From an uncultured Coriobacteriia bacterium (GTDB taxonomy: Bacteria > Actinomycetota > Coriobacteriia > Anaerosomatales > JAAXUF01): a stretch of DNA of 64,000 nt. The notes under the pieces were generated by a model. The model was not told the DNA's origin and did not search any database. It worked only from the letters and a program-made list of their open reading frames with translations. This document shows positions 24,643-27,600 of the stretch, piece after piece. The stretch is taken from NCBI GenBank assembly GCA_963726345.1, contig CAVSCC010000009.1, forward strand, positions 91,619 through 155,618. The letters are read 5' to 3'. A program made the position numbers and the translations under genes. Each line of letters opens with the position of its first letter. The stretch's first letter is position 1.

Positions 24643-27600
24643 CTACAGCAGAACCGAAAGGTGGTGCGCTTCGAGCCCGGCCTGGACTTCGTCGACGGCC
24701 TTCTGACCGACGCCGGGGAGACCAAGCAGGTCGCTCTCAGACTTGCCCTTCAGGTCGGCAACACACTCGATGCCGGCCTCCGCGAACTTGTTGACCCAGC
24801 GGGTCGAGACGCCGATGTCGGTGAGCGTCATCGATGCAGGATCCTCGGCGGCCGACATCTCGACCTCCTCGATCACGATGACGTCCGCCTCCGAAAGCAG
24901 CTCGGCGTTGGGATCGAACGTGATACCCGCGAACGCGCTGACGTCCAGCTCGCTGTCCTCGAGATCGAGGTCGGCGAAGGCGCTCTCGAAGTCGGCCTCG
25001 GAGAGGATGGACGGCTCCGGCAGAACCGGCAGGAGCGCCTCGATCTCCTTCAGCTCGTCGGGGGCCCAATCAGGAAGCGGGCCTTCGACCGGCGAGCCCG
25101 ACTCGATGTTCTGGCCCTTGTAGGTGAGCTCCACGTTGCGGTAGCGCTTCATGCCGGTCGCTGCCGGGATGAGCTTACCGATGATGACGTTCTCCTTCAG
25201 GCCCAGCAGGTGGTCTTCCTTGCCGGCGATCGCCGCGTCGGTCAGCACGCGCGTGGTCTCCTGGAAGGAGGCCGCCGAGAGGTAGCTGTCCGTAGCCAGC
25301 GACGCCTTCGTGATGCCGAGAAGGGCAGGATGGCCGTTGGCCGGCTCTCCCCTATCAGCCAGCACCGCGTTGTTGGCGGCGGCGAAGTCCAGGCGGTCAG
25401 CGAGCTGACCGGGCAGGAAGTCGGTGTCGCCCGGCTCCATGACGGAGACCTTGCGGAGCATCTGTCGGCTGATGACCTCGATGTGCTTGTCGTTGATGTC
25501 GACGCCCTGCGAACGGTAGACGTCCTGGACCTGCTCAACGATGTAGCGAAGCGTCTCGTTGGGACCCTTGAGCGCAAGAAGGTCATGCGGGTTGATCGAA
25601 CCCTTGGTGAGCTGCTTGCCGAGCTCGATGTCGGCACCGTTGACGACGCCCGGGAGCAGAGTCGCGCGACGCGAGACCGTGTACTCCGTGACGGCACCGT
25701 CGGCGTCGGTGATCAGCAGCTTGCGGGTCTTGTCCTGGTCCTCGATGGTCAGCTTGCCTGCGGCCTCGGCGAGAATCGCCTGGCCCTTCGGCTTGCGGGC
25801 CTCGAAGAGCTCGGTGACACGCGGCAGACCGTGCGTGATGTCCTCACCCGCGACACCACCGGTGTGGAAGGTACGCATCGTGAGCTGGGTACCGGGCTCG
25901 CCGATCGACTGGGCGGCGATGATACCTACCGCAGTGCCGATGTCGACGGGGCGGCTGCTGGCAAGATCCCAGCCGTAGCACGCCTGGCAGATGCCGTGGG
26001 TGGCGTGGCAGGTCATGACGGTACGACCCCAGAGGGTCTCCACACCCTCGTCGACGAGCTGCTGAAGCTCGACGTCGTTGCGGATGTAGGAGCCCGCCTT
26101 GAGCACGGTCTTCTTGGTTCCGGCCTTGAACGCCGGCTTGAGCAGGCAGCGGCCGACCAGGTTGTGGTCGACCTGCCCGTCCTCCTTGAGGATCGGGAAC
26201 TCGACGCCCTCGTCGGTGCCGCAGTCGCTCTCGCGGACGATGACGTCCTGCGCCACGTCGACCAGACGGCGGGTCAGGTAGCCCGAGTCGGCGGTACGAA
26301 GTGCCGTATCGGCAAGACCCTTGCGGGCGCCGTGCGTGGAGATGAAGTACTCCAGAACGGTCAGGCCTTCTCGGAAGTTCGCCTTGATCGGACGGTCGAT
26401 GATGTCACCCTTGGGGTTCGCCATCAGACCACGCATACCAGCGAGCTGACGAATCTGCTTGATGTTACCGCGGGCTCCGGAGTACGCCATCATGTAGATG
26501 GGGTTGAACTTCTCGAAGCTCTCGGCCATCGCGTCGCCGACGTCGTCGGTCGCACGCGTCCAGATCTCGACGATCTGGCGGTGACGCTCCTCGCGGGTGA
26601 TCAGACCGAGCTCGTACTGCTCCTCGATCTTGACGACCTTGAGGTCGGCGGCGTCCAGGATCTGCGGCTTGCTCTCCGGGATGATCGCGTCGAAGACCGA
26701 GACGGTGAGACCCGAGCGCGTGGCGTAGTGGAAGCCCAGACGCTTGAGCTCATCGAGGATCTGAGCCATCTGCGTGGTCGAGTAGTTGACCGAGCACTCC
26801 TCGACGATCCGGCCGACACCCTTCTTATCAACCTCGTGGTTGATGAAGGGGTGGTCGGCGGGAAGGCCGCGGTTGAAGATGACGCGGCCGATGGTCGTGT
26901 CGATGCGGTCGCCGGCCTGCTTCTGCTCGGTCTGGCCAGGCTTGGTCTGCACGATCGTGTCGTCGGTCAGACGGACGAAGATCTTCGCCTGCAGGTCGAC
27001 GTCGCTTCGGGCGTCGTAGGCCAGAAGGGCCTCGTCGGCGCTGTAGAACGTACGGCCCTCGCCGGGCATGCCGGGACGGTCGGCGGTCAGGTAGAACAGA
27101 CCGATGACCATGTCCTGCGTCGGCGTGGTCAGCGGGCGACCGTGTGCCGGCGACTTGACGTTGTTGGTGGAGAGCATGAGCGTGCGGGCCTCGGCCTGCG
27201 CCTCTGCCGAGAGCGGCAGGTGCACGGCCATCTGGTCACCGTCGAAGTCCGCGTTGAAGGCGGTACACACGAGCGGGTGGATGCGGATGGCCTTGCCCTC
27301 GACCAGGATCGGCTCGAAGGCCTGGATGCCCAGACGGTGGAGCGTCGGTGCACGGTTCAGCATGACCGGGTGCTCGCGAATGACCTCTTCGAGGACGTCC
27401 CAGACCTCGCGGCGGCCACGGTCGACCATGCGCTTGGCGCTCTTGATGTTCTGCGCGTGGTCGAGATCGACCAGGCGCTTCATGACGAACGGCTTGAACA
27501 GCTCGAGCGCCATGGCCTTGGGAAGGCCGCACTGGTGGAGCTTGAGCTCCGGGCCGACCACGATGACCGAACGGCCGGAGTAGTCGACGCGCTTGCCGAG

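Follow-up and report, generated by a model that had tools for sequence, protein, structure and literature searches.

In the class Coriobacteriia, the β' subunit of RNA polymerase continues past its usual end into a flexible tail, and the tail ends in a small domain of the α-CTD family. We propose that with this tail the polymerase may have a third nucleic-acid-binding arm on a flexible tether, and we put the probability of this reading at roughly 50%. In the textbook view, bacterial RNA polymerase has two tethered α-CTDs, domains that read upstream DNA and are contacted by activators. We analyzed the tail in a stretch of 64,000 nucleotides (the window) from an uncultured Coriobacteriia bacterium, and all coordinates are positions within the window.

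The rpoC gene (24643-28893, minus strand) is a single open frame of 1416 amino acids that runs through the tail to a stop codon at 24643-24645. Its product is a RpoC/β' equivalog, as both TIGR02386 (1727 bits, cut-off 963.5) and NF011498 (2275 bits, cut-off 1437) match above their cut-offs, and it contains five Rpb1 Pfam domains. The last conserved element of the β' core, GMKRYRNV (aa 1247-1254, encoded at 25132-25155), is present in 59 of 63 homologues. The match to TIGR02386 ends at aa 1252, while NF011498 covers aa 1-1415, with the tail included. Past GMKRYRNV, the translation continues in frame through an acidic linker of 100 aa (24832-25131, minus strand) and then a head of 62 aa (MTLTD...SVLL, aa 1355-1416, at 24646-24831, minus strand). 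The original prediction had described this same architecture, with about 100 aa of acidic linker and a 62-aa domain. The head lies at the C-terminus of β', not behind the N-terminal dimerisation domain of α, and the genome has a separate RpoA.

Judging from genome sequences, the head is lineage-wide within the Coriobacteriia, as the original prediction had suggested. Counting rpoC frames of 515 aa or longer, we found an in-frame tail with the head in 111 of the 151 genomes sampled from the class, and in all 78 of those from orders other than the window's own. A search with a narrower alignment of heads than our main set of 21 also found the tail in named isolates and in cultured gut genera (Adlercreutzia, Gordonibacter, Slackia, Senegalimassilia, and Raoultibacter). 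In the literature that we searched, we found no description of an α-CTD-like tail fused to β', so this arm seems not to have been studied previously; it had been suggested that the tail was functionally unexplored, and this agrees.

This distribution also addresses the concern, raised with the original prediction, that the tail could be a separate small gene that an error of assembly or frame had joined to rpoC in this draft genome. Neighboring genes do have single-base frame errors (in rpoB near 31577-31579 and near 29584-29589, and in rpoA near 6699-6712), and public contigs are short one base at 31578/31579 and another at 29583. But among the indels listed for contigs from four public runs over 24400-32600, none lies between 24594 and 25955, and two near-identical contigs from run X2 cover 24400-25002 without gaps. 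(The contigs are short pieces of relatives; each run contained at most 0.29 of the words sampled, and we used the contigs only to check for indels.) Furthermore, NF011498 models the tail as part of β', 55 of the 63 database homologues have precomputed matches to PF03118 (RNA_pol_A_CTD), and the same in-frame tail recurs across the class and in named isolates. The comparative data refute the idea of a fused ORF, and an artefact is almost certainly not the explanation.

Several methods place the head in the α-CTD family. Within the whole RpoC, PF03118 matches aa 1350-1408 (E = 1.3e-7, 31.7 bits, cut-off 23.8), and the isolated head scores 36.9 bits against the same cut-off. The genome's only other match to PF03118 is RpoA, whose canonical α-CTD (5957-6139, minus strand) scores 96.1 bits. 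When we compared the head to this RpoA (about 5933-6860, minus strand) using BLASTP, 15 of 52 aligned positions were identical (29%), with no gaps and E = 2e-7, which is similar to the gap-free 16/60 that had been counted by hand. A profile of the 21 heads matched α-CTDs of solved structure with E values of 5e-18 to 1e-9, including 5e-18 for the Thermus α-CTD (1doq). The head is also modeled confidently by AF2 (mean pLDDT 93.7, pTM 0.81). Given this model, Foldseek ranked α-CTD chains highest (1doq, 1z3e_B, and 1lb2_E), with TM scores of 0.68-0.84 and rmsds of 1.4-2.7 Å among the matches listed, except for 5i2d_A (5.5 Å). Those listed matches that we checked were all α-CTDs, either free or in the α chain of a polymerase complex. 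The predicted fold of the head is thus the (HhH)2 fold of the α-CTD, as originally proposed. We also considered whether the head might be an acidic repeat of NusA (AR1 or AR2), and rejected this: matches of the profile to NusA chains had E values of only about 8e-7 and were partial (profile positions 16-45), with no stretch passing by itself.

Some members of the window's own order have a different head. In 32 genomes from this order, the α-CTD-like head was absent and a module of two CCCH fingers matched strongly instead, in frames of at least 1000 aa in 29 cases. The four CCCH tails that we inspected have two C-C-C-H repeats on the same linker, which is still acidic. The fingers exceed the Pfam cut-offs for DUF5763 and zf-TRM13_CCCH in L125 (scores of 36.9 and 37.0, cut-offs 26.3 and 20.9), for DUF5763 in L126 (31.2), for zf-TRM13_CCCH and zf-C3Hc3H in L127 (30.6, and 28.9 with a cut-off of 27), and for zf-TRM13_CCCH in L128 (23.8). 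In a search of PDB sequences with the CCCH head, there was no match at E ≤ 1. In one group of families, as judged by sequence, the linker was kept while the head was exchanged for zinc fingers. By parsimony, the α-CTD-like head would be the ancestral one, because all other orders have it. The same type of CCCH finger is found at the end of NusA in 21 of 21 genomes examined across the class, and at the end of ribosomal protein bL21 in 3 of 3. (Both of these finger-bearing proteins are RNA-associated.) A predicted complex of the β' head, the C-terminal finger of NusA, and zinc had a score of 0.00, which speaks neither for nor against binding.

The linker was originally described as an acidic tether. 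It is indeed acidic, with 27 D/E and just 3 K/R in the 103 aa that start at R1252 and precede the head (net charge -24), and it is predicted to be mostly disordered (AF2 pLDDT of 46-65 over most of its length). However, it is not a plain tether, as it contains two conserved motifs and its acidic block moves with the head. Motif 1 (18 aa, 25027-25080, minus strand) has the pattern LP-x-(W/F)-AP-x-EL-K/R-x-(I/L)-E, which can be made out in 17 of the 21 aligned tails and in all four of the CCCH-headed tails that we inspected; AF2 predicts a short helix at tail residues 47-55, in a block with pLDDT of 76-78. Motif 2 (12 aa, 24910-24945, minus strand), with the pattern D-(V/I)-S-x-(F/Y)-x-G-x-x-F-(D/E)-P, is upstream of the head in 15 of 21 tails and is retained in three of the four CCCH-headed tails. 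In the six Coriobacteriales-type tails, a similar motif (D-x-SQLL-x-M-V-F-S/A-P) is C-terminal to the head. An acidic block accompanies the head in every one of the 21 tails. In 15 of them it is before the head (net -12 to -37), while in the six Coriobacteriales-type tails it follows the head (net -19 to -25), leaving just -5 to -8 for the linker that precedes the head. With its two conserved motifs, the linker is more than a spacer. We rejected autoinhibition, with the motifs docking on the head, as the main idea: the motifs are kept where zinc fingers replace the head.

To compare the DNA-contact residues, we aligned the 21 heads (from 21 genomes) to E. coli RpoA from NC_000913, and we use its numbering. 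The "265" determinant of the α-CTD, which we take to be R265, N268, C269, G296, K298, and S299, corresponds to R, N, K, G, K, and A in the window's head. Four of these residues (R265, N268, G296, and K298) had been reported as conserved. All four align in the window, and R265 (21/21), G296 (21/21), and K298 (20/21) hold up across the orthologues, but the N268 position is N in just 11 heads (otherwise T in 5, K in 3, R in 1, and D in 1). C269 is replaced by K in 15 of 21 heads, which adds positive charge, and S299 by A in 20. Other positions have diverged as well: E261 is G in all 21 heads, S266 is W in 18, and K271 is A or S in 18. The changes at E261 and S266 give the head a surface unlike that of an α-CTD, which could serve another partner. 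The heads are net acidic (-1 to -9), and the one from the window (-5 for a 66-aa segment) is more so than the genome's own α-CTD (about -2, counted by hand). The alignment of heads has no conserved stretch of 7-10 columns.

Similar domains occur in other contexts. In three loci from Actinomycetota outside the class, the rpoC frame is 1441 aa (L129), 1464 aa (L130), or 1133 aa long (L131, on a contig of 6.7 kb). These β' proteins also end in α-CTD-like heads, with one or two such domains near the C-terminus (two tandem heads in L131), but their linkers lack motifs 1 and 2. In L129 and L130, which represent a second actinobacterial lineage with a fused head, the residue at the R265 position is Y (by eye), and an acidic tail follows the head. 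These are probably independent fusions. More broadly, the profile of 21 heads matched 19118 protein representatives at E ≤ 0.001, and the best 150 are mostly tandem arrays of α-CTD-like domains. We scanned nine long proteins among these 150: five were SNF2/ResIII-type helicases and none was RpoC. The tandem domains on helicases mark the domain as a portable module of DNA enzymes. Single-domain matches (107-813 aa, about 100-105 bits) may be fragments of rpoC.

How might a third arm work? The original prediction had suggested that it could read upstream promoter DNA or dock factors. In our model, the two short motifs of the linker probably serve as docking sites for a constant partner, which would be the polymerase itself or a general factor. 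The other two parts of the arm are the polyanionic disordered segment of about 100 residues and the terminal (HhH)2 head. The head would be a third tethered nucleic-acid-binding domain, alongside the two α-CTDs, and could contact the DNA backbone or minor groove via the face with the equivalents of R265, C269 (here K), G296, and K298. It might help the enzyme to capture DNA or to hold upstream DNA, and the acidic segment might temper non-specific binding. The proposed geometry takes the position of the β' C-terminus relative to the upstream DNA and the RNA exit from solved structures. We favor this reading because the head has the family and predicted fold of the α-CTD and keeps R265, G296, and K298, and because its conservation across the class points to selection. 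Also, the head was swapped for CCCH fingers while the linker motifs were kept, and a conserved tether that can carry either of two small, unrelated domains, both of nucleic-acid-binding type, suggests a nucleic-acid-binding arm. That fingers of the same type end NusA and bL21, and that α-CTD-like domains are a portable module on helicases, argue for it too. Against it, we count the head's net acidic charge, the variable N268, the altered surface at E261 and S266, and the Y in place of R265 in L129 and L130. In E. coli RNA polymerase, according to a preprint (bioRxiv 10.64898/2026.07.21.739884), each tethered α-CTD speeds DNA binding, with the second giving about 10-fold and both about 55-fold. 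If the β' head binds DNA, it could be a natural test of whether capture of DNA becomes faster with each additional tethered domain that binds DNA.

Alternatively, the head might be mainly a protein-docking platform that recruits or holds a factor (for example NusA, a sigma factor, or an activator), with any DNA contact being secondary. The α-CTD of E. coli contacts activators and the AR2 repeat of NusA, and both the divergence at E261, S266, and K271 and the net acidic charge of the head are consistent with docking. In the Coriobacteriia, NusA lacks AR-type repeats (RpoA and RpoC account for both PF03118 matches in the window's genome) and ends in a CCCH finger, so the docking of NusA must differ from that in E. 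coli. Furthermore, RbpA was found in none of five complete genomes, and a CarD-like small frame was clear in only one of the five. This explanation is possible, but we doubt it: the profile of the head is far closer to α-CTDs than to the NusA repeats, the DNA-contact residues R265, G296, and K298 are nearly invariant, and the head is replaceable by zinc fingers of a type that is also on bL21 and NusA, which is easier to reconcile with a nucleic-acid role than with a single specific protein partner.

We think it unlikely that the functional part is instead the polyanionic segment, acting as a nucleic-acid mimic that displaces non-specific DNA or RNA and raises promoter selectivity, while the head only anchors or times it. 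Known comparators would be the acidic tail of the Firmicutes delta subunit and region 1.1 of sigma. In favor of this, the acidic block is always found with the head, on either side, and the CCCH-headed tails keep an acidic linker, but conservation is higher in the heads (mean column identity of 50%, versus 33% for whole tails) than in the acidic block. A broader idea strikes us as quite improbable: the modular arm and the CCCH fingers of NusA and bL21 would form one network that links the polymerase, close to where the RNA exits, with both NusA and the ribosome, giving a Coriobacteriia-specific system for factor recruitment and transcription-translation coupling that replaces the RbpA/CarD-type helpers of other Actinomycetota.

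Whichever role it has, a third α-CTD-type domain on another subunit is present throughout the class, cultured human-gut genera included. If it binds DNA, then promoter architecture and activator logic in Coriobacteriia may depart from the models based on E. coli and Mycobacterium. The natural exchange of heads and zinc fingers on a kept linker offers a ready-made comparison.

The β' head is like the canonical α-CTD in its family, its predicted fold, its flexible linker to the polymerase, and its R265, G296, and K298. In contrast, the canonical domain is carried by the α N-terminal domain while the head is on the β' C-terminus, and this attachment implies one extra copy per enzyme. The β' linker also differs in being about 100 aa, polyanionic, and with conserved motifs, and the head in its low identity, greater acidity, and residues at E261, S266, N268, and C269. 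The AR1 and AR2 repeats of E. coli NusA are (HhH)2 domains that bind the α-CTD and λ N. They share with the head the (HhH)2 superfamily, a net acidic charge, a flexible linker, and a terminal position on a transcription protein, although they match it much more weakly and just partially, and NusA of the class ends in a CCCH finger instead. The largest subunit of eukaryotic RNA polymerase II has a long disordered C-terminal domain of heptad repeats. This is an analogy only: both are long disordered extensions of homologous largest subunits, but the β' tail is unrelated in sequence or fold, has no heptad repeats, and ends in a folded domain.

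The window's rpoC (24643-28893, minus strand) is a single open frame of 1416 amino acids, and its product is a full-length beta' according to two models (1727 bits for TIGR02386 and 2275 bits for NF011498). In translation, the last residues of the conserved core are GMKRYRNV (25132-25155, minus strand). Next come a linker of 100 amino acids (24832-25131, minus strand) and, C-terminal to it, the head, with 62 amino acids (24646-24831, minus strand). The stretch between the end of the core and the head is strongly acidic: its 103 amino acids include 27 D/E vs. 3 K/R, for a net charge of -24. 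Thus, the original observation of an extra domain beyond the usual end of RpoC, on an acidic tether, was borne out. The fusion is already visible in databases: NF011498 (1459 positions) extends over the tail as well (model positions 1240-1373), and Pfam's RNA_pol_A_CTD (PF03118) is precomputed on such proteins (55 of 63 database homologues, whose names are those of Coriobacteriia). The gene for omega is also present in this genome.

PF03118 matches amino acids 1350-1408 of the window's RpoC with 31.7 bits (E = 1.3e-7) and the isolated head with 36.9 bits, so this check of the tail's end gave scores above the cut-off (23.8 bits). HHH_5 scores below its cut-off on the same protein. The head aligns without gaps to the CTD of this genome's own RpoA (15 of 52 identical, E = 2e-7), in agreement with the likeness previously counted by hand (16/60), and RpoA and RpoC have the only matches to PF03118 in this genome (73% complete). 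When a profile of 21 heads was compared to solved structures, the alpha-CTD of Thermus (1doq) was first (5e-18), and chains from Bacillus, Mycobacterium, and Streptomyces (1e-15 to 1e-11) and E. coli (1lb2_B, 1.5e-9) were also found. NusA repeats came behind the alpha-CTDs (about 8e-7) and matched part of the domain only. AlphaFold2 gives a confident model from the alignment of heads (mean pLDDT 93.7, pTM 0.81), and among the listed Foldseek matches in the PDB, alpha-CTD chains lead, whether free or as the alpha chain in polymerase complexes (TM 0.68-0.84). Just two of the listed matches have E ≤ 0.001, as expected because the domain is so small. Overall, the profiles and the predicted structure show that the head is an alpha-CTD-type domain, predicted to fold and tethered to beta'.

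Could the tail be a separate frame that was joined by an assembly error? Nearby genes do contain frame errors. Two single-base shifts, at about 31577-31579 and 29584-29589, break rpoB (minus strand, about 28898-32433) into three frames. tblastn with a relative's RpoA places the N-terminal part of rpoA (minus strand, about 5933-6860) in another frame, with the shift at about 6699-6712. On either side of every one of these breaks, identity to a relative from the same family is 85-92%. A base at 31578/31579 is missing from contigs of all four public sequencing runs examined, and in one run a base at 29583 is missing as well, so the window's rpoB probably contains spurious inserted bases. In the tail region, among the indels listed for contigs from the four public runs (there were 17 others), none lies between 24594 and 25955, and two near-identical contigs of one run (X2) span 24400-25002 with no gap. 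The presence of the same tail across the class (111 of 151 genomes, as described below) settles the point, and we rejected the fusion artefact. At the junction of rpoB and rpoC (28895), each of the four runs has one contig that lacks one base, so the true stop of rpoB or start of rpoC may not agree with the TTG listed at 28893.

Of the 41 nearest genomes, counting the window's own, 27 show a further match to PF03118 in a frame of at least 800 amino acids; in another three, the further match lies in a shorter frame that is probably broken. We also sampled the class evenly (151 genomes with this one counted, 150 of which are at least 90% complete), and in 111 of these genomes, the head matches a frame of at least 515 amino acids (mostly 1410-1600). 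By a hand count, these are all 78 genomes from other orders and 33 of the 73 from the window's order, so the tail is lineage-wide, as had been suggested. Named carriers include Raoultibacter timonensis, Adlercreutzia equolifaciens, Gordonibacter pamelaeae, G. faecis, Enteroscipio rubneri, Senegalimassilia anaerobia, Slackia equolifaciens, and Denitrobacterium detoxificans. Among 599 pattern matches that were scored, at least 546 encode a relative. Such conservation shows, at the level of sequence, that the tethered head is under selection across Coriobacteriia.

The survey of RpoC C-termini across Actinomycetota found other designs outside the class. In a sample of 276 genomes from there, the head profile matches no more than once (E ≤ 1e-6) in 256, and among the rows listed, those single matches are RpoA-sized frames. 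(The sample includes 11 unpublished genomes, G398, G247, G376, G301, G182, G166, G366, G324, G210, G277, and G229; they are part of the basis for one conclusion alone, that a single match is usual in the phylum.) Among the 150 matches listed outside the class (there were 191 others), three lie in long frames, and all three are rpoC tails. In two of them (L129:791-1297 and L130:810-1352, both plus strand), a single head carries Y in place of R265 and is followed by an acidic tail; the third (L131:295-951, minus strand) has two tandem alpha-CTD-like heads. We did not find the Coriobacteriia linker motifs in any of these three tails. Metagenomes also encode tandem alpha-CTD-like arrays, both on SNF2/ResIII-type helicases and as separate proteins made of such repeats (P0101, P0120, P0144, P0098, P0165, and P0064, which has about 12 copies).

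To number residues, we aligned E. coli RpoA (from NC_000913) with this genome's RpoA CTD and the 21 heads. Of the four DNA-binding residues that were thought to be conserved, R265 (R in 21/21), G296 (G in 21/21), and K298 (K in 20/21) are, but N268 is not (N in 11, T in 5, K in 3, R in 1, and D in 1). C269 is replaced by K in 15 of 21 heads, which puts a further lysine on the same face. N294 is G in 21/21, giving a classical G-h-G hairpin; S299 is A in 20/21 and S266 is W in 18/21. E261, part of the surface by which alpha-CTD faces sigma, is G in all 21 heads, so by sequence this surface is altered. The heads are acidic (net charge -1 to -9).

The linker is more than a tether, judging from the alignment of 21 tails, with two conserved motifs: LP-x-W/F-AP-x-EL-K-x-I/L-E (motif 1; 25027-25080, minus strand) and D-V/I-S-x-F/Y-x-G-x-x-F-D/E-P (motif 2; 24910-24945, minus strand). 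AlphaFold2 models of whole tails are confident for the head (pLDDT 88-94) and not for the linker (46-65), except for a short helix over a 12-residue block (76-78). In Coriobacteriales-type tails, including those of named gut genera, the head is preceded by a short linker (69-82 amino acids, net charge -5 to -8) and followed by another 79-92 amino acids (-19 to -25), which contain a motif-2-like D-x-SQLL-x-M-V-F-S/A-P. In each of the 21 tails, the head is accompanied by an acidic block (about -12 to -37) on one side or the other. So the tether is acidic, as first noted, and largely disordered, but it is not a plain spacer, and the acidic block can follow the head. These comparisons and models show beta' tethering an alpha-CTD-type domain by a conserved, acidic, and largely disordered linker.

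Five families of the window's order (f19, f7, f8, f18, and f22) lack the alpha-CTD-like head, and their rpoC frames still encode 1415-1558 amino acids. In four of these tails that we read, motif 1 was present in 4/4, motif 2 in 3/4, and two terminal CCCH zinc fingers in 4/4. These fingers exceed Pfam's thresholds for DUF5763, zf-TRM13_CCCH, or zf-C3Hc3H. With the CCCH module as the query, we found strong matches (E ≤ 1.2e-15) in 32 genomes of the order, 29 of them in frames of at least 1000 amino acids and 3 in frames of 271-527 amino acids that are probably truncated. None of these 32 genomes is among the 33 with alpha-CTD-like heads, and 8 of the 73 genomes were assigned to neither head (G142, G125, G135, G144, G147, G164, G037, and G033). 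The sequences show that in one clade, the alpha-CTD-type head was exchanged for another small domain of putative nucleic-acid-binding type. The CCCH head is probably derived, because every other order has the alpha-CTD-like head (this is parsimony, not a tree).

We infer that the arm binds nucleic acid, and the retained face of R265, K269, G296, and K298 suggests contact with the DNA backbone or minor groove. A 2026 preprint reports that DNA binding by the E. coli polymerase is made much faster by each alpha-CTD tethered to it (bioRxiv 10.64898/2026.07.21.739884). By analogy, a third tethered alpha-CTD-type domain could likewise speed DNA binding. Solved structures place the C-terminus of beta' next to omega, where the clamp has its base, and fairly near the RNA exit; from there, a linker of 100 residues could extend to upstream DNA or to factors at the exit. 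Alternatively, the tail might have a protein-docking role, which would fit the change of the sigma-facing surface in every head, or the acidic block might be central, as a nucleic-acid mimic, which would fit its constant company with the head. Overall, the original observation was confirmed, and its interpretation was supported in part.

We found no description of a beta'-fused alpha-CTD in the open literature that we searched (subscription journals were outside our coverage). There are also older surveys of polymerase domain accretion. A 2024 survey of insertions in beta and beta' masked N- and C-terminal extensions, and the passages of it that we found by term do not mention HhH domains or Coriobacteria (PMC11515920). 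What is new is the class-wide context of a known domain, whose function there is putative; the exchangeable-head design was unexpected.

RbpA (PF13397) was not found in any of five complete genomes of Coriobacteriia (G103, G138, G109, G031, and G118), and in the same five, a CarD-like small frame, Mfd aside, is clear in G118 only and weak in one other. When we searched this genome for the CCCH finger, the single match was the C-terminus of NusA (L132:1576-2739, minus strand, on contig C10; 387 amino acids, followed by ylxR-like and infB genes). We read this C-terminus and 20 others (L133-L152, in frames of 383-687 amino acids); these were chosen among the finger matches, so the sample is biased towards finger carriers. 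All 21 have a linker and a single CCCH finger, C-x-x-V/M-T-x-x-G-V-R-C-R-N-x-A-R-P-G-S-x-Y/F-C-G-x-H, where AR-type repeats would stand. Three small finger-matching frames, from some families of the window's order, encode ribosomal protein bL21 with a lysine/alanine-rich extension and one CCCH finger (L153:655-1179, minus strand; L154:293-787, plus strand; and L155:270-836, plus strand).
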